NCBI GenBank assembly: GCA_021324535.1
Contig: JAJPIU010000106.1
Location: 3,961-67,960, forward strand
Reading direction: 5' to 3'
DNA length: 64,000 bases
Source of the DNA: Pseudomonadota bacterium
GTDB taxonomy: Bacteria; Chloroflexota; Ktedonobacteria; Ktedonobacterales; JADMIN01
Shown here: positions 26,901 to 40,118 of the stretch, piece after piece
Layout: each line of letters starts with the position of its first letter
How positions within the stretch are numbered: position 1 is the stretch's first letter
The notes under the pieces: model-generated
What the model saw: the letters and a program-made list of their open reading frames with translations, nothing else
Databases searched by the model: none
What the model was told of the DNA's origin: nothing
Position numbers and translations under genes: made by a program

Positions 26901-27660
26901 TCAGCTTTCCTGGCTCAGGGGAGCCAGTTCTAACAGGTCGTAGGTATTGCGATGCACTCCTATTCCATGCTCGACAAGAAGAGCTACCAATTGCTTACCA
27001 TTCATAAGCGCCACCGGGACAGCATCCCCTCGCTCAGCCTCAACTCGCGCCCCAGAACTAAAATCGCTGGTGGTGATGATGAGTCCTTGCTCATGTGTTC
27101 CTAATGCGCCGCGTACTTGCTGTATCGTTGGAGCCTGGACATTGGTTTTCCATCGCTTCACTTGCACAGCCATACGTGTACGAATGACATCGCCTACAAC
27201 GAGTGTTCCGCGTACATCAATGCCACCATCCCCCGACCAGTTTGTAACCTCAACCTTCTCAAATCCAATAGTCGCAAGCATCTCGCCAATCAGTGACTCG
27301 AATTGGTCAGGAGGCATTGAGGTAAGTTGTGTAAGCATCTGTAAGTGAACGCTTGCATTATGGCGTTCGATTTGCGCAGCCAGTCCTTGATCTTCCTGCC
27401 AACGGCTCAAGCCGAGAAAGCCGCACCCTAGCTTGACAAAGCGTGGCGAAACACCACGCTTGTTTCTTCTTGCAATTTCTTCCAGTACAGAGGCATAGAG
27501 GGTAGCTTCGGGGGTTCTGCCATTTGTCTCAATAAGACCAAGCGAGAATGCCTGCTGCGTAATATCACGGTAATGGAGCGGCTGCTGCTTTCCGGAAAAT
27601 TTCCAACACTTGCTCAGCGGCATCGGTAAACGAGAGTACGTACTCGTGAGCTAGAGCCAA
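26901..27660 (-). pseudogene. Mrr-like type IV restriction endonuclease (HARE-HTH plus Mrr_cat), interrupted by a 1-nt frameshift
   Basis: The track ORF (26901..27623) carries the Mrr_cat core (WSGDGGIDVRGTLVV...MAVQVKRW...GLIITTSDFSSGA). The true N-terminus, ALAHEYVLSFTDAAEQVLEIF, is in another frame and stops 9 codons after the A4/T4 run at 27596-27602. The local GC is low (27/60 at 27241-27300). Confidence 0.7.
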
Positions 27661-29502: not shown

Positions 29503-29512
29503 AAATATAGGC

Positions 29513-29538
29513 GCTCCCATCTCACAGAGGATGGGAGC
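29513..29538 (-). terminator. Terminator of the low-GC cassette
   Basis: GCTCCCATC-N8-GATGGGAGC forms a 9-bp stem. On the minus strand it is followed by TATATTTTTA. Confidence 0.6.
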
Positions 29539-29609
29539 AGGAGCCGAAGCGGCGCGCTGGGCGTCTTCTGATGCTTCAACTCGTCAAAACTCGTCAAGCA
29601 TCGAGGCGC

Positions 29610-31055
29610 TCAGCTCTGCTCAGTGAGCAGCTTGAAGAGCAGGGAGGCCAATAACGCGAGGAGAACATAGCCGGTAACACTCGTGAGGACGAGGAGAACC
29701 TGTGTACTGAAACCTCCACAATAGGCAGCCAGTGAGGAATTGGAGCCAAGCGCCGTGAGATTTGTGACGGCAATGTAGAGATAATGCACGAAAATCTGCA
29801 CGTAATCAAACCAGGAGGTAGGATGCGGACGCTCCGCAGGACAAAAGAGTGTTCCATGCCAAACCGCCGGAACTCCTGGATTGAGCAGGTCGTTGAGAAA
29901 GAAAAGCGCCGTGTCCACCCCTATGACGGTTAGCACGGTACGGACATAATTGGCTGGCCGTGTGCCATAGCCAGTGGTGACTTTCAGTAGCCATAGCGTT
30001 GCAGCTTGAAGCCGAAATTGAAGGCGCCGCCAAAACTGAGGATGAGGCTGAGACCGACATCTCCAGAGTTCCCGGACAATCTCGTCACGTAGTTGATAGC
30101 GCAACTCGGATTGCGCGTCTTCAGCCTGCGAGAGCCAGCCGACCTCTTCGGGAGCAGCTTCGCCAAATTGCTTGATCAGACGACGAAACTGTTCCGAGTC
30201 GAGAAAACCGGTCAGAAAGTAGTGCCGATTCGTCAGTTGGTACAATTCCCTGTCCCATTCCCGAAGGCGAGTAAGATACTTGCGAACATCATCTCTTATC
30301 GGTGCGCGCGTGGGATTATCTTTTCCGAAGCCACTACCGCTCATCTGTCGCCCTAAAAAATTCGCCGACGCGCGTTTTTGATACAAAGACGCCTCAAGCC
30401 AGAGCAACCAGATTTGATGCGCTCTTGCAGTCGTCAAACCAATCTCACTAAGTCTGGCCTCATCAGCGCGGATTTTTCGGCTCTCCTGTGGATCATCCCG
30501 AAGAAACTCATTTCTCCAAAGACGTTCAGCCGCTCCACCAATATCGCTGATGAGATCGCCCCATAATTCGTCAGCCTTTGTCGCATCTACGGGATCTGGC
30601 TCACTTGTATCAGCAGATGAATCTTGAGTAGCCCCAGCGGCGCTTTGCATGCTATCTTTTGGGTCACTCTTTTGGCCGGGATAAAGCGCCTTTGCGATAA
30701 GGTGATCTATTTGCTGTTCAAAGTAGCTGAAAAGCTCGTCTCTGGCGCCAAGATCTCCCATTCGTTGCCGGGTCAAATAGCCAATCACCTCTTCGCAGGT
30801 AATAGGGCCAGCATCATCGAACATCCCAGTAGCCCGTGCCAACAAGTGATTGTACAGGTGGTGAAGGGCATCATGATTGCCCGCTTCCGCCTGTTGGAAT
30901 TGCTTCTCTCGCTCAGCGTTGATCGCAATTCCCCTGCTACCCAGATAGGTGCGGTATTTCCCGGAGAATGTTGGCGCATCTCCTTTTTCGGCGGTAGTGA
31001 TCAAGGCGCGTATCTCAGGCGTGCGTAGTTTCGGTGGTACTGCGGTGTCGAGCAT
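29610..31055 (-). CDS. Unknown ~350-aa cytoplasmic helical domain fused to a C-terminal 2-TM K+-channel-like pore domain with a degenerate filter
   Basis: 481 aa, with GGAGGGA 7 nt before the ATG. C-terminus: LLKVTTGYGTRPANYVRTVLTVIGVDTALFFL (TM1, the GYGxRP motif seen in Ion_trans_2-type proteins) ... FVHYLYIAVTNLTALGSNS (a pore-helix/filter-like segment; canonical is T-[VL]-G-Y-G-D) ... VLLVLTSVTGYVLLALLASLLFKLL (TM2). GC is about 52-55%. Confidence 0.7.
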   Translation of the reverse strand: MLDTAVPPKLRTPEIRALITTAEKGDAPTFSGKYRTYLGSRGIAINAEREKQFQQAEAGNHDALHHLYNHLLARATGMFDDAGPITCEEVIGYLTRQRMGDLGARDELFSYFEQQIDHLIAKALYPGQKSDPKDSMQSAAGATQDSSADTSEPDPVDATKADELWGDLISDIGGAAERLWRNEFLRDDPQESRKIRADEARLSEIGLTTARAHQIWLLWLEASLYQKRASANFLGRQMSGSGFGKDNPTRAPIRDDVRKYLTRLREWDRELYQLTNRHYFLTGFLDSEQFRRLIKQFGEAAPEEVGWLSQAEDAQSELRYQLRDEIVRELWRCRSQPHPQFWRRLQFRLQAATLWLLKVTTGYGTRPANYVRTVLTVIGVDTALFFLNDLLNPGVPAVWHGTLFCPAERPHPTSWFDYVQIFVHYLYIAVTNLTALGSNSSLAAYCGGFSTQVLLVLTSVTGYVLLALLASLLFKLLTEQS

Positions 31056-31086: not shown

Positions 31087-31141
31087 TTTCAGAGCATTTC
31101 AGAGTAGTTTCAGAGTAGTTTCAGGGTAGTTTCAGGGTGTT
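31087..31141. repeat. 11-bp tandem repeat x5 (TTTCAGRGTAG) between the receiver-like and channel-like genes
   Basis: ttttcagagca|tttcagagtag|tttcagagtag|tttcagggtag|tttcagggtgt. On the minus strand this reads (CYCTGAAAnnn)5. The last unit contains the TGA stop of the receiver-like gene. Confidence 0.9.
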
Positions 31142-31593
31142 CTCTGGTGTAGCCAGTCCCGAACGGCCTTTTTCAGGTCTTCATTCTTGTCTTTTCCACG
31201 AAAGATAATTTGGCTGAGAACAACACGATGCGGGTGTTTTGGTAGCTTGGAGAGCTCGTCGAAATCATTTTCCGATGCTGTAAAGACAATGATGTGCGTC
31301 CTTCCCCACCAGTCTGTTGAGGGTTTGTTCCAGACGTGAACAAGAAATGGCCGCATGTTTTCGATCTCGCTTGACACACCACGATCCAGTGAGACATCGC
31401 AAATGAGCAGGATGCGTTCATCTCGCGTTGCCTGGTTGTCCTGCAATTCCAGCACAATCTGATCGAGGTCTTCTTTGGTTCTGGCTTCGCGAATTGTACA
31501 GGAAATCTCCTCTTGTGAAAGCAGCCTCATGAGCATGCTCTTCCGCTTGGCCAGCGAAAGGGGTACATTTTCCAAGAGTATGAGCACCGCCAT
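31132..31593 (-). CDS. Stand-alone receiver (REC)-like protein with an atypical acidic pocket
   Basis: 153 aa, with GAGGAGG 5 nt before the ATG. It shows a flavodoxin-like alternation: AVLILLENVP (E-N where DD is usual), ERILLICDVSLD (candidate phospho-Asp), HIIVFTASEN (conserved T), and IIFRGKD (candidate K). It has no output domain. Confidence 0.65.
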   Translation of the reverse strand: MAVLILLENVPLSLAKRKSMLMRLLSQEEISCTIREARTKEDLDQIVLELQDNQATRDERILLICDVSLDRGVSSEIENMRPFLVHVWNKPSTDWWGRTHIIVFTASENDFDELSKLPKHPHRVVLSQIIFRGKDKNEDLKKAVRDWLHQRTP

Positions 31594-31632: not shown

Positions 31633-34600
31633 CTAGGCTGATGTCACAGCTGGCAGGGCCAGGCAGAACACATTTTGCAGGGTCGGAGTATCGGCATCGG
31701 GCCGGTAATATGCCCTCCCGCCCAGCCGCTTCGCGATACTGCGTACCTGGAAAAGTCCAAGCCCACCACTATTGAGCAATTTTCGCAACTGCCGCCGTTG
31801 TATTTCGTTGCCCTGCCCAGCGTCATGCGGCGTTTGTCGGTCGCCTTCACTAGGCGCTGAAAGGGCGAGCGCGCTCAGCCGAAGCTGCCGCGCCGCCTCA
31901 CCCTGCACATTCGGCCGGAAGATGCGTTCCCGGTCTCGTTCGGGGATGGGAAGACCGGCGCTCGCCACCTCAAAGATGACCTGATTGGCCTCTTGCTTGA
32001 GTCTGATCAAGATCGGCGAGTCCGGATCAGCGTACTTGATCGCGTTGTCTATATACTGGAACAACGCCGCACGAATGAGCCGCCCTCGCTCTGCGCCAGC
32101 CTCCAGATAGATTGGTTGCAGCTTCTCATTTGGAACATTCCATTGGAGTGTCTTTGCGAACGCGGAGGCGAAGGTATGAATCGGCGCCCTGAACACTTGG
32201 AGGATAGTCTGGGCGGTTTGCCTCTCGTACGCCGCCGTGTTGTTGGTAGTCACAGGTGGCTGCAGCTCATCGTTCGACAGATCGAGGAACCAGGTAGACA
32301 GGTCGCTGATGAGCTTTATCAGGTCTCCAATGTCCTCAGTAAGTTGCTGTGCCTCATCGAGACCCATGCGCCGTTCGGCAATATCATTGGCGCGTTCGAT
32401 CTTCTCCCAGATGTCGTTTGCGCCATCAAGTTCATCTCCCAATGGAGAGAGCGCAATTGCGATGTCATGGCGCATCTGGCGAATCAGATCGTTGCGCGCC
32501 TGAATCAGCGCAACGGCGTTGATGCCCCCAACCAGTGTTTCGGCGAACATCGTCAGGATTTCTTTATCGAAGTCGCTGAACTCGGCCACATTGGGGTGAG
32601 CCAGCGCAAGCACGCCGAACGACTCGATCTCCCCTTCCGCGCCGCCTTCGACCGGGCGCAGCAAGGGAACACATACGAGCGAGCGAGCCTCTATGGGCCA
32701 GGGTTCTCCCTCTCGCTCTCTTATTGGCTCATCCGTTCGATCCAAGATCAATACCGGCTGCTGCGAACGGAGCGCCTCCAGGAAAAGCGGATACACGACG
32801 GGAAGAGGCGTATCATCGTACACATATTCGCGAAACGACTCTTCACCGCTTTTGTTATACGCCCGCCAGTACAGTTTCTCTACAAAGGGCTTATCATCTT
32901 GAGCAGCCCAGGTGAGCATCACGGTTCCCCAGCCCGCCTGAATATCTGAAAGCTCGGCGGCGTCCTGAAGCGCCCGGCGCATAAAATCACCGAGGTTGGC
33001 CGATTGCGTTTGCAGGATGGTTGTCTCGAAATCGCGGAGCTTCTCGCGCAGCACGGCAAGAACCTTCAGGCGCGTTGCAGTCATCATCTTAGAGATCAGA
33101 TCGGCTGCCGTTTGGCAGGCATGTTTGACATCCTCTGTGAAAGTGCCCTCGACCCCACCCTCTAGATTGAGCACGCCAACTACCTGTGTTCCTTCCGCAA
33201 CCGGCAGAAAGATGCCTGACAGGCTTTGTCGGGTCGGGTCGCTATCGAACCAACTTGTCTGATCGCGTGTCTCTTTGTCGTTGAATACAATTATCCGCCG
33301 TTCGAGAAAAGCGGCGCTCGAGACACCCTTATCGAAGGAAAACGTATGTTCCTCGCGACTTGTAATCTCATCGGGTGTCTCCCTGTGATCGGTGGAAACC
33401 AGATAAGACAAACGACCACGCTCACGGTCTACGGCCCCGGAAGCCGTATAGGCGTTGAGCGCAACCGTAAACCGCCCAACCCAGCACCCAATCAGATCGT
33501 TCATTTGCTCAATGATACTTAGGATGGTTGCGTTGCGCTTCTTGCGCAGCAAAGTAAAGTCGCTGAGAGCATCTAGCTCTCGGATGCTGCGATCCACCTC
33601 ATTGGACAGTTCGGCCAACGTCATCTCGATGGACGTTTTCACGGCGCGATCAATCACCGAGAGAGCGAACGCCGCCAGTTGTGCCAGAAACTCGATCCAA
33701 TCAATGTAGTCGGAGGTAAAGTGATGGACGGTGTTGGATTCCACATCCAGCACACCAAGCGCGGTCTGGCCGATCGAGAGCGGCGCTGCAACTTCGCTTC
33801 GGGCGGCGGGGAAGTAGGGAAGGTATTCTCGTCCTTCAAGGAGCTTGGAAATGTCTTGAATGGGTTTTGTTTCACGATCAGTATAGGCAGAGCCGGACAC
33901 ACCCTCAGTTGCAAGCCAGCGTGTGCCAACTGCCGTGTTCACTGGCGCGTTCGTCATCTGATCACGCATCACCAGATAGGTTTGCTGACCCTCCGTGACT
34001 TCCGCCAAAGCAAATGCGCCATGTTCGGCATGGGTATACGTCGTCGCCCAGCCAAGAATCTTTTCGCCTACTACTGCCCGTATCTGCTGGATGAGGTCGC
34101 GCTTGACCGACTTGCCATCGCTGGGAAACAAAGGGGCAAGCAATGCCTGCAATTCGAGCGAGCAGGCAAGCTCGTCAGCAAGGCGACGATCCCGCGCATA
34201 CTCTATGCTGCGGCTGATCGCATACACCGCAATGTCCGCCACCTGTTGCAGGGCAGGCAAATCAGCGTTTCTACTGAACGCTCTGATGCCAGGGGCGACC
34301 AGCCCAATCACGCCCAACGAGCCACCAGGGCCGATCAACGGGACAATCAATTCAGATGTTTCGCCGAGCGTTGTGCCTGAGTCGCGGTAATCTTTGTCTT
34401 CTTGGGCGTGATCGATCACTTCACCCTGCTGATTGGCATAGATTCTCCACGCGATGCTGTCTCCCTGCTTCCATTCCCACTCAGGCTCGGAATTGAAGGA
34501 GCCGATACGTCCCGCGCGCACGGCGAAGAGCTTGCGCTCACTCCCAGAAAGATTATGCTCCTCTCTGCGCACAAGGATCAGCCCACCTGAGACCTGAGTT

Positions 34601-35310
34601 GGCCCGACAACGGAGGCGGCGACACGCAGAATCTGGTAGCAGGTCTCCGTAAGATCGTCCTGAGCGATTGCGAACGCGATCCTTGCGCGCATCTTCGTCA
34701 GGAGGTCTTCCACAATCGCCTGTTCGGACATTGGTTCAAAACGAATCGTCCGCATTTCATTGTGGAGTTCCTGCGCGATACCACTGTGCTGTAGACGCGC
34801 AATAGCATCGGCAGGGAAGGCGTTCTCCTTGCTGCTTTCAATGTTGAGGACGCCGATGATGTCATTATCGCTGCGCAGAGGATATGCTAACACAGAGCGT
34901 GTGGAGAACAGTGTGGTCTGTTCGCTGGTATCCATGGCACGCGACCGTGGGTTACGCTCCTCAATCGCGGCGATCACAGGCGTGCCGGAAGCGTAAGCGC
35001 GCCAGACAACGCTGTTTCCTGAGCGAATACGGCTAATCAACGCCACTGAGGTCTCAGGTTGGATTTCCGACGCAATGAGTTGGCGTGTTCCCGGAGTACA
35101 AATGAGCGCCTCGGCCATTCCTTCATCGCTCAGCCCGAATACTTCCAGCGCGCGAACCAGCAACGCTTTCAGCTTATTTGTCCACCGATAGGAAGGCTGA
35201 TTGGTCTCTACGCCAATCGCCTCCGCTTCACTAATACCTGCTGGCGCCGGAGGGCTTGCGATTTCTTTGTCTTTCCCGCGACCAAACCTAATCCAATCTC
35301 TCATAGGCAT
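31633..35310 (-). CDS. Cytoplasmic sensor histidine kinase with five GAF-like modules
   Basis: Start re-set to MPMRDW (GGGGAGG lies 8 nt upstream; track start 35433 lies at or above the predicted TSS). Five recurring GAF C-terminal signatures: IIGVLNIESSKENAFPADA, SLGVIGLVAPGIRAFSRNA, ALGVLDVESNTVHHFTSDY, VVGVLNLEGGVEGTFTEDV, SFGVLALAHPNVAEFSDFD. H-box: LIRQMRHDIAIALSPL. N-box: YIDNAIKYA. G2: GGLGLFQVRSIAKRLGG. There is no TM segment. Confidence 0.85.
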   Translation of the reverse strand: MPMRDWIRFGRGKDKEIASPPAPAGISEAEAIGVETNQPSYRWTNKLKALLVRALEVFGLSDEGMAEALICTPGTRQLIASEIQPETSVALISRIRSGNSVVWRAYASGTPVIAAIEERNPRSRAMDTSEQTTLFSTRSVLAYPLRSDNDIIGVLNIESSKENAFPADAIARLQHSGIAQELHNEMRTIRFEPMSEQAIVEDLLTKMRARIAFAIAQDDLTETCYQILRVAASVVGPTQVSGGLILVRREEHNLSGSERKLFAVRAGRIGSFNSEPEWEWKQGDSIAWRIYANQQGEVIDHAQEDKDYRDSGTTLGETSELIVPLIGPGGSLGVIGLVAPGIRAFSRNADLPALQQVADIAVYAISRSIEYARDRRLADELACSLELQALLAPLFPSDGKSVKRDLIQQIRAVVGEKILGWATTYTHAEHGAFALAEVTEGQQTYLVMRDQMTNAPVNTAVGTRWLATEGVSGSAYTDRETKPIQDISKLLEGREYLPYFPAARSEVAAPLSIGQTALGVLDVESNTVHHFTSDYIDWIEFLAQLAAFALSVIDRAVKTSIEMTLAELSNEVDRSIRELDALSDFTLLRKKRNATILSIIEQMNDLIGCWVGRFTVALNAYTASGAVDRERGRLSYLVSTDHRETPDEITSREEHTFSFDKGVSSAAFLERRIIVFNDKETRDQTSWFDSDPTRQSLSGIFLPVAEGTQVVGVLNLEGGVEGTFTEDVKHACQTAADLISKMMTATRLKVLAVLREKLRDFETTILQTQSANLGDFMRRALQDAAELSDIQAGWGTVMLTWAAQDDKPFVEKLYWRAYNKSGEESFREYVYDDTPLPVVYPLFLEALRSQQPVLILDRTDEPIREREGEPWPIEARSLVCVPLLRPVEGGAEGEIESFGVLALAHPNVAEFSDFDKEILTMFAETLVGGINAVALIQARNDLIRQMRHDIAIALSPLGDELDGANDIWEKIERANDIAERRMGLDEAQQLTEDIGDLIKLISDLSTWFLDLSNDELQPPVTTNNTAAYERQTAQTILQVFRAPIHTFASAFAKTLQWNVPNEKLQPIYLEAGAERGRLIRAALFQYIDNAIKYADPDSPILIRLKQEANQVIFEVASAGLPIPERDRERIFRPNVQGEAARQLRLSALALSAPSEGDRQTPHDAGQGNEIQRRQLRKLLNSGGLGLFQVRSIAKRLGGRAYYRPDADTPTLQNVFCLALPAVTSA

Positions 35311-35436
35311 AGGGCATACCTCCCCGGCGCCAACGTTTGCCAATGCCCTTGGATGAGGTGAATATACCTCTCTCGCACGAACAGGCTTATGAGCGGAGTG
35401 AAGCACAAAGGCATAGAATAGCGCCTCTTGCATCTC

Positions 35437-35496: not shown

Positions 35497-36192
35497 TCAT
35501 AGTTGCACCAAGCCTTGTTGAGCGGCCAGCGCCACCGCTTCCGTGCGGTTGCCTGCGCCCAGCTTACGCAACACCGCGCCTACATGGTATTTCACCGTGC
35601 GCTCGGTGATGCCCAATTCATGCGCAATCTCTTTGTTTTGCAGGCCACGCGCCAACAGATTGAGCGTTGTGCGTTCGCGCGGGGTCAGTGTCGGCGGCGC
35701 TCCGGTCTTACCCTCGTGTGGGCGCTCCATCGCCCGGAGCAACTTTGAAGCAACCAGCGGCGTCAATAGCGAACCGCCCTGGTGCGCCACCCGCACCGCC
35801 CGAAAGACCTCCTCACGCGGCGCGCCTTTCAGCAGATAGCCCTGCGCGCCTGCCCGCACGGCAGCCATAATACGTTCGTCGGTGTCGTAGGCCGTGAAGA
35901 CGATGGCGTTGACGGTGATCCCTTCCGCACGCAAACGTTCGAGCGCGCCAACGCCATCCAGCACTGGCATCGCGAGATCCAGCAGCAACACATCCGGGCG
36001 CAGCTTGCGTACCAGCGCCACCACTTCCTCGCCGTTGGCTGCCTCGCCCACCACTGTGAAGTCACGCTGCCCGCTCAGGATCGCCACGAGGCCATCGCGC
36101 ACGATGGGATGATCGTCGGCGACGAGAATGCGAATTGGCTGTTGCCCTGCCAGAGTCGCATTTCTCGTATTGCTCGCATTGCTTGCGTTCAT
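35497..36192 (-). CDS. NarL/LuxR-family response regulator
   Basis: 231 aa. REC: ILVADDHPIVRDGL...DVLLLDLAMPVLDG...VFTAYD...GYLLKG. LuxR HTH: LTPRERTTLNLLARGLQNKEIAHELGITERTVKYHV. Confidence 0.9.
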   Translation of the reverse strand: MNASNASNTRNATLAGQQPIRILVADDHPIVRDGLVAILSGQRDFTVVGEAANGEEVVALVRKLRPDVLLLDLAMPVLDGVGALERLRAEGITVNAIVFTAYDTDERIMAAVRAGAQGYLLKGAPREEVFRAVRVAHQGGSLLTPLVASKLLRAMERPHEGKTGAPPTLTPRERTTLNLLARGLQNKEIAHELGITERTVKYHVGAVLRKLGAGNRTEAVALAAQQGLVQL

Positions 36193-36208
36193 ATGGGCTG
36201 CCTCACCT

Positions 36209-37489
36209 TCAGGAGTGCTCTTGAGTATCTGCCTCGGTGGATAGTCTGCCTTCCAGCGGGATCACCACGCGAAAGCGTGTTCCTCGTTGGGGCGCGCTGG
36301 CAAGCGACGCCACGCCGCCAAGCAGCTTCGCGCGCTCGTTCAGGCCAATCAAGCCATAGCGCCCCGGCTCGACCTGCGACATCTCGAAACCCTGGCCGTT
36401 GTCGGTGATCGTCAGCGTGACGCGACGCTCTTCGCTGGCCAATCGTATGGTGATGCGCGTCGCGTTGGCGTGTTGCACGCTGTTGGCCACCGCCTCCTGC
36501 GCCATGCGATACAGCCCTACCTCGATGCGTGTCGGCAAAGGACGCGCGCCGCCCGTCACCCGTAGCTTGATGTCAACCCCGCTGCTGGCTGCCTTGTCAT
36601 GCGCCAGCGCACTGAGCGCCTGGGCCAGCGTGCGCCCTTCCAGTGGGGCGGCGCGCAAGTCGAGGACGGAACGGCGCGCTTCTTCGAGCGTGGCGCGTGT
36701 CAGGGTGAGCGCCTGATGGATGGCGCGGCGCGCCTGCGCCGTGCGTTGCGCGTCTGCTTCTACGGCGCTTGACTGGCTTGAGGCGTCAGAGGCGTCAGAG
36801 GCGTCAGAGGTGTCAGAGGTGTCAGGCAATTCGAGCGATTCGAGCAGCGCGTCGGCTGATTCGAGCTGCAAGGCGACACCAGCCATGCCCTGCGCCAGCG
36901 TATCGTGAATCTCGCGGGCCAGCCGGTTGCGTTCCTCTGTGGCTCCTGCCTCGGCGCTGCGCGCGAAGAGCCGCGCCCGTTCGATGGCCACGCCCAGCAT
37001 ATCGCCAATCGTATGCAACAGTCGCAGGTCATCAGGCGAGAGTTCGCGCCAGTCGGGGCTGGCGACGTTCATCACACCGAGCCGCTGCTCGTTGGCGTAG
37101 AGCGGAACGCTGGCGTGGTAGCGCAGCCCGTTCGCGCCGTCCACCAGCTTTTTCAGCCGCGAACAGGTGACGACGTTGACATTGGCCGCGCCCGCTAGGT
37201 CGCCCGCAACAAAGGTTTCCAGGCAGTAGCACCAGCCCTCCATGCGGTCGGGATGACGCGCCAGCGCAGGAGGCAAGTGGAGCGACGCTGCAAGGTATGG
37301 CTCGCCGTCATCTTCACGCAACAGCCAGACCCAGCCAGTGTGCATGCCAAATACCCTGGCGACCTGCGCAAGCGTTGTGCGCAGCGCCTCGCCAAGGTCG
37401 GTGACGCTGTTGAGCGTCGCGGCGATCTCGTTGAGGATCACCAGATCGCGCTGGCGACGCCGGTTGTTGGGCGATGGTGTCTCAGACAT
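36209..37489 (-). CDS. GAF-containing HisKA_3 (NarX/DegS-type) sensor histidine kinase, cytoplasmic
   Basis: Start re-set to MSETPSP (an alternative in-frame ATG lies at 37534). GAF: ARVFGMHTGWVWLL...LGVMNVASPD. H-box: ERNRLAREIHDTLAQGMAGV. HATPase: AVANSVQHANATRITI...DNGQGF...GLIGLNERAKLLGG. Confidence 0.85.
   Translation of the reverse strand: MSETPSPNNRRRQRDLVILNEIAATLNSVTDLGEALRTTLAQVARVFGMHTGWVWLLREDDGEPYLAASLHLPPALARHPDRMEGWCYCLETFVAGDLAGAANVNVVTCSRLKKLVDGANGLRYHASVPLYANEQRLGVMNVASPDWRELSPDDLRLLHTIGDMLGVAIERARLFARSAEAGATEERNRLAREIHDTLAQGMAGVALQLESADALLESLELPDTSDTSDASDASDASSQSSAVEADAQRTAQARRAIHQALTLTRATLEEARRSVLDLRAAPLEGRTLAQALSALAHDKAASSGVDIKLRVTGGARPLPTRIEVGLYRMAQEAVANSVQHANATRITIRLASEERRVTLTITDNGQGFEMSQVEPGRYGLIGLNERAKLLGGVASLASAPQRGTRFRVVIPLEGRLSTEADTQEHS
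36781..36825. repeat. In-frame 9-bp tandem repeat (aggcgtcag x3, aggtgtcag x2) inside the kinase gene
   Basis: It encodes PDTSDTSDASDASDAS in the loop between the two DHp helices. Confidence 0.85.
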
Positions 37490-37532
37490 GGCAAACGGTA
37501 TAATTTCTGTGATGAAGAAAGGAGTCTCTCTC

Positions 37533-38318
37533 ATGCAGTATACTCCATCCCCCACGACGTCTGCCGGAGACGCTTCTCTCGCGCGTCCACTTGTTCCCGC
37601 CGCAGAGAGGCCGACGAAAGCGCCCACTAATATGCGATTACGCCTCACCGCGCTCGATGGGGCAATACTGCTCTCGTTTGGCCTCTTGGTTGCTTGCGAT
37701 GCGACTGCGGCGGTGACGCACGCGGGCTGGTTTTCATCTATGTTGATCACGCTGGGGGAGTCATTGCTGCTAGCGGGGTATATGCTGCGGCGAGCGTGGC
37801 GTCCAATAGTGGGACGGCTGCTGCTCTTTGGTCTGATTGCCGGTATTCTGGAACTGGGAACCGACGCGGCTGGCGAGATTGTCGCCCACTCGCTGAGCTA
37901 TCCACCGAACGAGCCGATGCTCTGGCGTTCGCCGTTGTATATGCCGTTCTCGTGGATGATGGTGCTGACGCAGATCGGCTATCTGGCGTGGCGGCTCTGT
38001 GCCGCGCGTCCGCTTGGGCTTGGCTGGCCGCGCTGGGGCGCCATGCTGATACTCTTCGCATGGGGCGCGCTCAACATCCCGCTCTACGAAGAGTTCGCTT
38101 ATTATGCAGGTTGGTGGCGTTATACCGCGACGAGGCTGCATATCGGGCATACGCCACTGTACGTCTCCCTCTTCGAGGGATTGGTGGTCGCCGCGCTGCC
38201 GTTGCTGCTGGGCAGGCTTTCACAGCTTCGCTGGTGTGGGGTGGCCTGGCGCGCAGTTGCGCTTGGCCTGTGGATACCCTGGGCGGCGCTCTTCGCGTGG
38301 CTGCTCGTCGGGCGCTAG
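37533..38318 (+). CDS. Polytopic membrane protein, hypothetical
   Basis: AAAGGAG lies 8 nt before ATG 37533. It is 261 aa with 6-7 hydrophobic helices (LLLFGLIAGILELGTDAAG..., MPFSWMMVLTQIGYLAW..., LYVSLFEGLVVAALPLLLG). Confidence 0.6.
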   Translation: MQYTPSPTTSAGDASLARPLVPAAERPTKAPTNMRLRLTALDGAILLSFGLLVACDATAAVTHAGWFSSMLITLGESLLLAGYMLRRAWRPIVGRLLLFGLIAGILELGTDAAGEIVAHSLSYPPNEPMLWRSPLYMPFSWMMVLTQIGYLAWRLCAARPLGLGWPRWGAMLILFAWGALNIPLYEEFAYYAGWWRYTATRLHIGHTPLYVSLFEGLVVAALPLLLGRLSQLRWCGVAWRAVALGLWIPWAALFAWLLVGR

Positions 38319-38393: not shown

Positions 38394-40118
38394 GTGACCA
38401 AGAGCGAGAGCGAGGCCAGCGCCAAGCTGGCGCATAAGCGCACCCCTGAGGAAATCTCAGAGATTATGCGGCGCGTGCAGAGCAGCGATACCGCTCCTGA
38501 GGCGCGGCTGCGCGCGGCGCTGGCGGACTGCGGGCTGACTTCACCTGATCCTACCGCTAGCGCAACGCTCTCCGGCAAGCCCGATCTTGTGTTTGCTGAG
38601 GCGCGGCTGGCTGTCTTTGTGGATGGCGACCTCTGGCACGGCAATCAGTGGTGGCGGCGTGGTCTGACCTCGCTCGAAGAACAGTTCCGCGAGACGCCCT
38701 CGAAGGCGTATTGGCTGCGCAAGATCAGGCGCAATATGCAGCGCGACAGCGCCGCCACCGCCGCGCTGCTCGATGACGGTTGGGCGGTGTTGCGCCTGTG
38801 GGAGAGCCAGATCAACGTCGACCTTGCGGGCTGCGTCGCCCTGATCGCCAGCGCGCTCGCATCCACTGGCAAGCGCCAACCCCCAACTGCGACGATCAAC
38901 GAGCGCGGCGCAGAGTATGACGTTGCGCGTGTTGCATCTTCGGCTGACGAGGCGCGGGCGCGGCTGGCGCGCAAGACATGCGCCGAGTTTTTCGCAGGCA
39001 TTGGGTTGATGCGCATGGGGCTTGAGCGCGACGGCTGGTCGGTCGCCTTCGCCAACGATTACGATGAACGCAAGGCGGCGATATATCGCGGCCACTTTGG
39101 GGCGGATGATCGCTTCCATCTGGGCGACATCCATGCTTTGTCGGTTACAGACATCCCCAATGTGACGCTGGCGACCGCCTCGTTTCCCTGCAACGACCTC
39201 TCGCTGGCGGGCGCGCGTCAGGGTTTGGCGGGCAAACAGTCGTCAGCGTTCTGGGGCTTCACACGCATCCTCACCGAGCTTGGCGCGCGCAAGCCGCCGC
39301 TGATCCTGCTCGAAAACGTCGTCGGCTTCCTCACCTCGCATGGCGGCGAAGATTTGACCCAGGCGTTGCGCACGCTAAACAATCTTGGCTACGCAATGGA
39401 TATGTTCCAGCTCGACGCCGCCCACTTCACCCCGCAGAGCCGCCAGCGCCTCTTCCTGCTTGGCATGCGCGCCGATCTGCTGACGCCAGCCGAAACCGAT
39501 CAAACGGATGTCGCGTCCTTCGCCTGCGATGCGCGCCCGCCTGCTGTACTGGCCGCCATCGGGCGTCGCCCGGATATTCTCTGGCGTCTGCGCCGCTTAC
39601 CTCCATTACCCACCCTTGCGCAACGCCTGCCCGACATCCTCGATGACTTGCCGGAGGATGCGCCGGAGTGGTGGAGCACGGCGCGCACGCAACGCCTGCT
39701 CGACCAGATGAGTCCACGCCACCGCGCGCTGGCCGAGCGGCTGATGGCTGGCGAGACATGGAGCTATGGCACAATCTTCCGCCGCACACGCAACGGCACG
39801 CCGATGGCGGAGCTACGCGCGGATGGCATCGCAGGTTGCCTGCGCACACCACGCGGGGGCAGCGCACGTCAGATTCTCTTCAAGGCAGGCTACGGTCAGG
39901 CGCGAGCGCGGCTGCTCACCGGACGCGAGGCGGCGCGGCTGATGGGCGCCGATGACTATACCCTTCCTAAGACGCTCTCGCTGAACGACGTGCTGTTTGG
40001 CTTTGGCGACGCCGTATGTGTGCCTGCCACCGCCTGGATCGCGACGTACTATCTCAACCCACTGGTCAACGAGTTGCTGCGGGGGCATGTGTTGCAGGCG
40101 CCAGCTATGCGCGTGTAG
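38394..40118 (+). CDS. Fusion protein: Vsr-like very-short-patch-repair endonuclease domain plus DNA (cytosine-5) methyltransferase
   Basis: 574 aa with a GTG start 5 nt after GGAGGC. Vsr part: ISEIMRRVQSSDTAPEARLRAAL...KPDLVFAEARLAVFVDGDLWHG...YWLRKIRRNMQRD...GWAVLRLWESQI. C5-MTase part: EFFAGIGLMRMG (motif I), SFPCNDLSLAG (motif IV), LLENVVGF (motif VI), FGDAVCVP (motif X). Confidence 0.85.
   Translation: MTKSESEASAKLAHKRTPEEISEIMRRVQSSDTAPEARLRAALADCGLTSPDPTASATLSGKPDLVFAEARLAVFVDGDLWHGNQWWRRGLTSLEEQFRETPSKAYWLRKIRRNMQRDSAATAALLDDGWAVLRLWESQINVDLAGCVALIASALASTGKRQPPTATINERGAEYDVARVASSADEARARLARKTCAEFFAGIGLMRMGLERDGWSVAFANDYDERKAAIYRGHFGADDRFHLGDIHALSVTDIPNVTLATASFPCNDLSLAGARQGLAGKQSSAFWGFTRILTELGARKPPLILLENVVGFLTSHGGEDLTQALRTLNNLGYAMDMFQLDAAHFTPQSRQRLFLLGMRADLLTPAETDQTDVASFACDARPPAVLAAIGRRPDILWRLRRLPPLPTLAQRLPDILDDLPEDAPEWWSTARTQRLLDQMSPRHRALAERLMAGETWSYGTIFRRTRNGTPMAELRADGIAGCLRTPRGGSARQILFKAGYGQARARLLTGREAARLMGADDYTLPKTLSLNDVLFGFGDAVCVPATAWIATYYLNPLVNELLRGHVLQAPAMRV

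Follow-up and report, generated by a model that had tools for sequence, protein, structure and literature searches.

The window analyzed here is a stretch of 64,000 nucleotides from contig JAJPIU010000106.1 (assembly GCA_021324535.1), and the subject of this report is a three-gene operon located on its minus strand. The first gene (31633..35433) codes for a kinase-like protein with multiple GAF domains. It is followed by a 39-bp gap, a gene coding for a 153-amino acid (aa) protein (31132..31593), a 76-bp gap, and a gene coding for a 481-aa protein (29610..31055), the C-terminus of which very probably has the fold of a P-loop channel pore. The pore gene is the last one in this tight, self-contained arrangement. 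The features of the region, with coordinates given as positions in the window, are as follows.

31633..35433, minus strand: kinase-like gene, about 1225-1266 aa, cytoplasmic, GAF matched over five stretches, C-terminus resembling a histidine kinase
31132..31593, minus strand: receiver-like gene, 153 aa, divergent REC-like protein as judged by synteny and hhalign
29610..31055, minus strand: whole pore gene, 481 aa, predicted cytoplasmic helical N-domain and C-terminal pore domain with two transmembrane (TM) helices and a P-loop
30036..31055, minus strand: N-domain, residues 1-340, all-helical and TM-free (AlphaFold2 model assigned with DSSP, confidence mostly 80-94)
29973..30035, minus strand: helix preceding TM1, residues 341-361, basic and amphipathic, predicted by AlphaFold2
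29955..29978, minus strand: TTGYGTRP, residues 360-367, G-Y-G-x-x-P motif where TM1 begins on the cytoplasmic side
29880..29954, minus strand: TM1 (outer helix), residues 368-392, from hydropathy, the AlphaFold2 helix and conservation, ending in FFLND
29814..29879, minus strand: turret, residues 393-414, predicted external, variable, holding the conserved Cys405
29757..29813, minus strand: pore helix, residues 415-433, FDYVQIFVHYLYIAVTNL, predicted by AlphaFold2; the pore helices of KcsA and KirBac3.1 align with it, as do those of the Ion_trans_2 bridge proteins described below
29736..29756, minus strand: T-A-L-G-S-N-S, residues 434-440, degenerate selectivity-filter position, register from hhalign and hmmsearch
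29712..29735, minus strand: post-filter loop, residues 441-448, Y-C446-G-G, with C446 as the proposed disulfide partner of C405
29619..29711, minus strand: TM2 (inner helix), residues 449-479, from hydropathy and AlphaFold2, including G462-Y-[FV]-L-L
29512..29539, minus strand: terminator-like hairpin, 10-bp stem and T-rich tail, about 70 nt past the stop codon of the pore gene

The open reading frame (ORF) 29610..31055 was considered real because it is a 481-aa frame, it shares its start with the homologues (N-terminus M-[LI]-D-x-A..P), and it belongs to a conserved operon. The gene is single-copy within the window, and an identical 481-aa protein is present in public assemblies. An initial annotation, made from the nucleotide sequence without database searches, had described the region 29610-30005, which codes for residues 351-481, as a K+-channel-like pore domain in which a first TM helix, a pore-helix-like segment and a second TM helix follow one another. 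Hydropathy analysis (Kyte-Doolittle, averaged over 19 residues) identified strongly hydrophobic segments at residues 369-392 and 440-481 and a weaker, amphipathic segment at residues 418-437. The maximum within residues 1-340 was 0.66, and this pattern was repeated in nine homologues. An AlphaFold2 (AF2) monomer, built on a 10-sequence alignment with a mean pLDDT (the model's own confidence measure) of 78 at full length and 73 for the C-terminus alone, placed a helix at residues 341-361, a turn at GYGTRP, TM1 at residues 367-391, a turret with little order, a pore helix ending in ...VTNLTA at residues 415-434, a loop with the sequence L-G-S-N-S, and TM2 at residues 449-479. The picture was the same when the C-terminus was modelled alone. 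Residues 424-440, which are encoded at 29736-29786, read HYLYIAVTNLTALGSNS. There are five Lys plus Arg residues before TM1 versus one in the 56-residue loop, a distribution that predicts both termini inside and the loop outside. According to these models, the pore domain would comprise a re-entrant pore helix between two TM helices, and both termini would be cytoplasmic. The motifs lie at the positions initially proposed, and both TM helices and a re-entrant loop are predicted.

The N-domain was also as initially described, helical, TM-free and unrecognizable. Residues 1-340 produced no match in Pfam, NCBIfam, PADLOC, the PDB sequences or Foldseek, and comparison of the full-length AF2 model with the PDB returned only non-significant helical-repeat noise. 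Conserved motifs in this domain include AAERLWRDxFL, LWLEASLYRxRA and ELRYQ. A loose resemblance of residues ~54-95 to the start of sigma-70 region 2, which the initial annotation itself distrusted, found no support: Sigma70 families were absent from the matches of the window protein at E <= 1 and from those of 64 relatives at E <= 0.1, and the homologues P0002, P0004 and P0007 lack the segment. Between the N-domain and TM1, residues 341-368 include five Lys plus Arg and no Asp or Glu, and the helix at residues 341-361 is possibly an interfacial element of the 'slide-helix' type.

Comparison of the full 481-aa protein with Pfam (E <= 1), NCBIfam and PADLOC identified no family, and the C-terminus alone had no matches among the PDB sequences. 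Two out of 64 members of the wider family matched Pfam Ion_trans_2 (PF07885), at E >= 0.02. By the gathering threshold of that family (22.5 bits), the pore domain lies outside Ion_trans_2, and its sequence qualifies it as a remote homologue. Since the direct Pfam search fails, a link to Ion_trans_2 needs profile-profile or bridging evidence. The tail of the search with a C-terminal family profile included three proteins, P0080-82, at E = 4.8e-4 to 9.6e-4, values that are corrected for the whole library. These are pentapeptide-repeat or short proteins that pass the Ion_trans_2 gathering threshold with 30-44 bits, have TGYGDR or TGYGESP before TM1, and carry the filters TSLGYSN or TTIGYAN. The C-terminus of P0082 matched 166 distinct PDB sequences, all 60 among the matches listed being K+ channels, and its E-value against Kv1.3 was 1.3e-4. 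When the 78-member family was compared by hhalign with an Ion_trans_2 alignment composed of the bridge proteins and six further Ion_trans_2 relatives of P0082, the probability was 98.1% (E = 6e-14) over 114 columns extending from TM1 to TM2, and LTSLGS was aligned on FTTIGY of the bridge proteins. The close clade alone reached 97.3%. The initially suggested alignment to Ion_trans_2 thus failed as a direct Pfam match and succeeded when bridged by the profile search and hhalign. The association of a GYGTRP-type motif at the first TM helix with Ion_trans_2 channels fused to soluble domains was confirmed by the motifs of P0080 and P0082.

Solved structures led to the same register. A profile of 64 full-length members had KirBac3.1 as its best PDB match (E = 0.009-0.012), in an alignment that runs from TM1 to TM2, places tnLtslGs over qTMaTIGY and matches the inner-helix Gly; G462 falls on the Gly of LEALCGMLGL in KirBac3.1, as expected of an inner-helix gating glycine. 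NaK was found in the same register, more weakly than KirBac3.1. An hhalign comparison with the KcsA sequence set T434-A-L-G437-S-N-S over T74-T-V-G77-Y-G-D; when single sequences of KcsA, NaK and MthK were used the scores were weak and the register was right. The initially proposed register of the pore helix and filter therefore holds against KcsA, against FTTIGYaN in the bridge proteins and against TIGYG in KirBac3.1. The 50 highest-ranking PDB structures retrieved by Foldseek for the C-terminal AF2 model were all P-loop channel pores, including MlotiK1, KirBac, KcsA, Kir2.2, AKT1, HCN, SK, hERG and iGluR, while comparison with viral structures yielded only holin-type noise with a TM-score of ~0.2. 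The latter result argues that the channel-only list is not generic to TM hairpins. No profile search placed the C-terminus in a non-channel family. The conservation of the segment in 78 members, together with a profile that reaches bona fide Ion_trans_2 proteins, takes the resemblance beyond chance. We consider it very probable that the C-terminal 135 residues are a real, although very diverged, homologue of the P-loop channel pore fold.

A word-based search of 5.8 billion clusters identified nine relatives at 32-40% identity, and an exhaustive search of 1.84 billion representative proteins with the C-terminal profile identified 77 proteins at E <= 1e-3, 74 of which constitute the family. The pore family is rare, with 74 representatives. 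A close clade of 28 representatives (E < 1e-30) carries the motif NLTSLGSNS..A.YCGG, and a wider clade has a shorter turret and the motif NLTSLGSxPxPCGP. The family is known only from metagenomes, Ktedonobacterales-type metagenome-assembled genomes (MAGs) among them; a scan of the GTDB species representatives with patterns specific to the close clade detected two matching loci, both in Ktedonobacterales MAGs.

The K+-selective signature is T-x-G-[YF]-G, and the window protein reads T-A-L-G-S-N-S and keeps only T-x-G. The Tyr and the second Gly of the signature are replaced across the whole family, in which none of 78 members has a GYG or GFG filter. The filter consensus is [T]-N-L-[TS]-[ST]-L-G-S-[ND], with the Gly in 75 and the Leu in 62 out of 79 aligned sequences, and the pore-helix aromatic residues and the T/S-L-G core are retained. 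Because both residues of TxGYG are replaced throughout the family, K+ selectivity is unlikely, as the initial annotation had anticipated for the single protein. This view is based on analogy with NaK and NirBac. NaK (TVGDGN) keeps only sites S3 and S4, is non-selective and conducts Na+ and K+ (PMC9822992), and NirBac1.1 and 1.2, which have non-canonical P-loops, were non-selective in liposome flux assays (PMC4607889).

Conservation was unevenly distributed over the domain (78 members). The GYGxxP junction showed 3.08 bits per column, the filter and TM2 2.5 each, and the turret 0.92. No other element of the domain is as conserved as the junction, in which G362, G364 and P367 are each present in 94-96% of the members, and high values were also found for G462 (97%), G448 (95%), Y463 (94%), C405 (94%), D389 (92%) and C446 (92%). 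A constrained pore or gate fits this pattern, in which the filter, the junction and G462 are conserved while the turret varies freely, better than a mere membrane anchor does. The GYGxxP motif is shared with the pentapeptide-Ion_trans_2 proteins and may act as a junction with the gate or represent a relic. Its TTGYGT portion (29955-29978), which is cytoplasmic, resembles a K+ filter, and hhalign, run with the close-clade profile, misaligned it with TVGYGD of KcsA and MthK. Regarding the cysteines, C405 is located in the turret and C446 nine residues past the filter Gly. Both are present in 73 members and neither in 5, and no member has a single one. This perfect co-occurrence suggests that they probably form an extracytoplasmic disulfide bracing the outer mouth of the pore, which would in turn place the P-loop in an oxidizing, extracytoplasmic compartment. 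In Kir2.1, the extracellular Cys122-Cys154 disulfide is needed for folding (PMC10274791).

The operon linkage is the most informative clue to the function of the pore gene, and it had not been seen in the initial annotation. Besides the window, eight loci (P0009, P0003, P0006, P0007, L007, P0044, P0042 and P0065) had readable upstream sequence. A multi-GAF gene lies upstream of the pore gene in all eight, and a middle gene of ~135-190 aa is present in seven of them, the exception being P0065. The intergenic gaps range from -11 to +76 bp across the window and the loci with a middle gene. The gene products at these seven loci are as follows.

Locus P0009: kinase-like protein 1322 aa, middle protein 150 aa, pore protein 388 aa
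Locus P0003: kinase-like gene cut, middle protein 175 aa, pore protein 410 aa
Locus P0006: kinase-like protein 1231 aa, middle protein 152 aa, pore protein 466 aa
Locus P0007: kinase-like protein 1187 aa, middle protein 167 aa, pore protein 385 aa
Locus L007 (Ktedonobacterales MAG): kinase-like protein 1189 aa, middle protein 150 aa, pore protein 453 aa
Locus P0044 (wider clade): kinase-like protein 1107 aa, middle protein 135 aa, pore protein 392 aa
Locus P0042 (wider clade): kinase-like gene cut, with GAF and HATPase_c, middle protein 190 aa, pore protein 481 aa

The genes flanking the module are different at every locus, and transposases are present in three of the other loci. The GC content of the operon is 54.6% (49% in the receiver-like gene), compared with 61.8% in the remainder of the window. 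The lack of conserved flanks, the nearby transposases and the GC shift point to a self-contained cassette, and the low GC content of the operon along with the transposases found elsewhere suggests that this cassette is transferred horizontally.

The kinase-like protein, the start of which is placed 41 codons later by the gene callers, lacks TM segments of its own, and Pfam identified only GAF and HATPase_c in it (GAF_2, E = 8.8e-46 over five stretches; HATPase_c, 34.6 bits versus a cut-off of 26.4). An invariant His within xxH[DNA]xxxALxPL was found in five orthologues, and the N box and the G2 box are present. The Pfam HisKA models produced no match in the protein. From its sequence, the protein thus combines an HATPase_c domain with a conserved, presumably phospho-accepting His in a predicted DHp helix, the features that define a histidine kinase. 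In the window copy, the ATP-lid region that separates the G1 box from the G2 box carries an insertion of ~35 residues, including LSALALSAPSEGDRQTPHDAGQGNEIQRRQLRKLLN, which occurs in none of four orthologues.

A word-based homologue search with the 153-aa protein returned only itself, and its orthologues were taken from the syntenic loci, six of which had readable sequence. These six orthologues were compared by hhalign with a small REC alignment, and the probability was 93.5% (E = 2e-7, 110 columns). D66 was aligned on CheY D57, and a Thr is found within IIVFTA, at the position of beta4. The receiver-like profile had a single PDB match, Rcp1, at E = 0.6.

Taking these results together, we hypothesized that the pore protein is a non-selective cation pore acting as the output of a phosphorelay that starts at the GAF kinase, a reading of the sequences to which we give about an even chance. 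Assuming the usual tetramer, the pore would retain no more than the inner ion sites, and its conduction of monovalent cations would lack K+ selectivity. In the proposed pathway, the GAF domains would sense a cytoplasmic ligand and the kinase would modify the receiver-like protein; this protein, or the kinase directly, would then bind the cytoplasmic helical domain of the pore protein, and the movement of the helical domain would reach the inner-helix gate, G462, by way of the invariant GYGxxP junction. The complete version is more tentative, and we put it forward as a possibility that is less likely than not. In it, a His-Asp phosphorelay would use the stand-alone receiver-like protein to gate a P-loop cation pore that is non-selective and braced by a disulfide. 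Gene order is what suggests the coupling of the kinase and the receiver-like protein to the pore gate. In the searchable literature we found no description of the pore family or of receiver-gated P-loop channels, and we know of no response regulator reported to gate a P-loop channel.

Several observations weigh against a pore of this kind or against its control by a phosphorelay. Pfam Ion_trans_2 matched one out of 10 isolated C-termini, at E = 6.8, and a 10-sequence C-terminal profile searched against the PDB detected no channel, only noise such as lactate dehydrogenase and complement C5. Since the bridge proteins were picked at the end of the hit list of the family search itself, the hhalign E-value is optimistic, a selection bias from which the library-corrected E-values of P0080-82 are free. 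The single Foldseek E-values were 0.8-5, with TM-scores of 0.36-0.59, and the pLDDT of the AF2 model around the filter was ~60-67 on an alignment of only 10 sequences. On the kinase side, the G1 box D-x-G-x-G reads V-A-S-A-G-L-P in the window, and four close-clade orthologues have Ser or Asn instead of its Asp, which is retained only in the distant L011; with this Asp replaced, ATP binding may be atypical. Considering both the lid insertion and the Ser in G1, the catalytic competence of the window kinase is uncertain from its sequence. The receiver-like protein had no Pfam Response_reg match, and the window copy has E8-N9 in place of the acidic pair and Gln in place of the conserved Lys. Gene order cannot tell an output from an input. 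Finally, in the distant family member P0065 (JGI 3300047160) a 914-aa multi-GAF protein, in which no HATPase_c was detected, directly precedes a 508-aa pore protein, and this two-gene variant implies that the conserved core may be a GAF protein plus a pore rather than a phosphorelay. The P0065 arrangement is likewise a hint of possible direct contact between the GAF protein and the pore protein.

The protein could instead be derived from a channel and yet be non-conducting, serving as an anchor, an oligomerization scaffold, or a membrane or extracytoplasmic sensor that provides input or localization to the GAF kinase, a direction of signalling that gene order allows. The filter lacks two residues of the K+ signature, Tyr and the second Gly; the kinase, being without a TM segment, could obtain its localization or an external signal from a membrane partner; and a disulfide-braced external loop could sense redox state or a ligand. 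We nonetheless regard this explanation as unlikely, though deserving of serious consideration. In a pure anchor, the pore helix, the T/S-L-G core and the inner-helix Gly would have no need to be so strongly conserved. In two-component logic, five GAF stretches already supply sensory input, and a receiver-like protein needs a target; furthermore, comparably degenerate filters do conduct, as is the case in NaK (PMC9822992) and NirBac (PMC4607889). The opposite departure, a channel that is K+-selective after all through an unconventional filter, could appeal to the preserved T/S-L-G core and pore-helix aromatics and to locus L003, where the module adjoins a KdpD/KdpE-like pair and a Na_Ca_ex gene. 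That neighborhood occurs at one locus only, no member out of 78 has GYG or GFG, and the four K+ sites require TxGYG; NaK, with a single Tyr-to-Asp change, is already non-selective (PMC9822992). We find this explanation hard to credit.

The cassette-like behavior of the module, with its low GC content, its changing flanks, the transposase genes that flank it in three other loci and an Mrr-type restriction endonuclease ~2 kb away, would also fit a mobile stress or anti-phage module in which a sensor triggers a depolarizing, toxin-like pore leading to abortive infection. To our knowledge, multi-GAF histidine kinases are not typical defence sensors. PADLOC identified no family for the pore or receiver-like proteins at E <= 1 and only a generic HATPase match for the kinase, the Mrr neighbor is kept in no other locus, and the C-terminal model had no viral structural relatives in Foldseek, all of which make this a very improbable account. 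The resemblance to channels might even be fortuitous, the C-terminus being a hydrophobic hairpin from an unrelated 2-TM family, since neither the window protein nor its nine closest homologues have a direct Pfam, NCBIfam or PDB sequence match and the Foldseek E-values exceed 0.8. That four independent lines, the library-corrected Ion_trans_2 matches, the hhalign probabilities of 97-98%, KirBac3.1 and the Foldseek list, converge on the same register makes the chance of this negligible in our view.

As for the surroundings of the operon, the terminator-like hairpin sits in the gap toward a convergent AMP-binding-enzyme gene; it is a consensus match only, and the total number of terminator-like sites in the region is not above the shuffled expectation. 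This convergent gene separates the operon from the Mrr-type gene (26901-27623, minus strand, GC 51%), which codes for a 240-aa HARE-HTH plus Mrr_cat restriction-endonuclease-like protein recognized by the PADLOC models PDC-S02 and type IV methyl-directed restriction endonuclease, and which is not beside the operon in other loci. Directly upstream of the operon and on the same strand (35497-37750) is a canonical two-component pair, a GAF-HisKA_3-HATPase_c kinase and a Response_reg-GerE regulator. Locus L003 has a KdpD-like kinase and an OmpR-type regulator in the corresponding place. These neighboring pairs may reflect transcriptional control of the cassette. Farther upstream, a 574-aa ORF (38394-40118, plus strand) codes for a Vsr very-short-patch-repair endonuclease fused to a C-5 cytosine DNA methylase, functions usually found in two separate adjacent genes. 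A 318-aa antisense ORF (31993-32949, plus strand) located wholly within the kinase gene is most likely a by-product of GC-rich sequence.

The family extends the range of P-loop pores to a clade that was unseen by the curated models, and its conserved [TS]-[ST]-L-G-S-[ND] filter, combined with a putative Kir-like Cys brace, represents a natural experiment on how much of TxGYG can be lost. The operon linkage raises a testable hypothesis, namely that bacterial phosphorelays can target ion channels directly. Few regulatory inputs are known for electrical signalling in bacteria, which is under active study. If the proposed pathway is correct, the sensing of metabolites or second messengers would be converted into a change in membrane potential or ion flux in filamentous Chloroflexota, and the module would constitute a new output class for two-component signalling as well as a new gating mode for tetrameric cation channels. 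The immediate reach is modest, since the family is rare and known only from metagenomes.

Among the proteins detected by sequence, those closest to the pore domain are uncharacterized pentapeptide-repeat plus Ion_trans_2 proteins such as P0080 and P0082. They share with the window protein the TGYGxxP before TM1, the location of a 2-TM plus P-loop unit C-terminal to a soluble cytoplasmic domain, and filters already devoid of the second Gly (TSLGYSN, TTIGYAN). Unlike the window protein, they pass the Pfam threshold, keep the filter Tyr and lack the turret and post-filter Cys pair, and their soluble domain is a pentapeptide-repeat beta-helix whereas that of the window protein is all-helical. The best sequence match of solved structure is KirBac3.1 (PDB 1xl4, 7adi), at a borderline E of ~0.01, and in it a helix also precedes TM1. 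Kir and KirBac channels are prominent in the Foldseek list, and the Cys pair parallels Cys122-Cys154 of Kir2.1 (PMC10274791). However, the window protein has TALGSNS versus TIGYG in KirBac3.1, and instead of the Kir-type beta-rich C-terminal cytoplasmic domain it has a helical candidate regulatory domain at the N-terminus. NaK (TVGDGN) and NirBac (TTGTD in NirBac2.1) are similar in fold and in having a T-x-G core with the outer GYG sites lost. NaK keeps the second Gly, which the family does not, and the post-filter sequence SNS..A.YCGG (xPxPCGP in the wider clade) is unique.

In the case of the partners, the middle gene resembles CheY-type single-domain regulators in that it is stand-alone and conserves the putative acceptor Asp and the beta4 Thr/Ser; its location between a histidine-kinase-like gene and a candidate target that does not bind DNA also follows CheY-type logic. 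Unlike those regulators, it escapes Pfam Response_reg, and in the window copy the conserved Lys and one residue of the acidic pair are missing. The top Foldseek matches of the pore domain belong to MlotiK1 and other prokaryotic channels gated by ligands (PDB 3beh, 2zd9), with a TM-score of up to 0.51 and a root-mean-square deviation of 3.3 Å over 114 columns. The likeness is also one of concept, as MlotiK1 is a pore gated by a cytoplasmic ligand-sensing module, the control proposed here. In MlotiK1, a cyclic-nucleotide-binding domain is fused C-terminally to a 6-TM channel, whereas here the candidate GAF sensors are on a separate protein and the pore is of the 2-TM type. What is new in this system is the filter and post-filter signature, the probable Cys brace in a prokaryotic 2-TM pore, the helical N-domain, and the conserved association with a GAF-kinase and a receiver-like protein.

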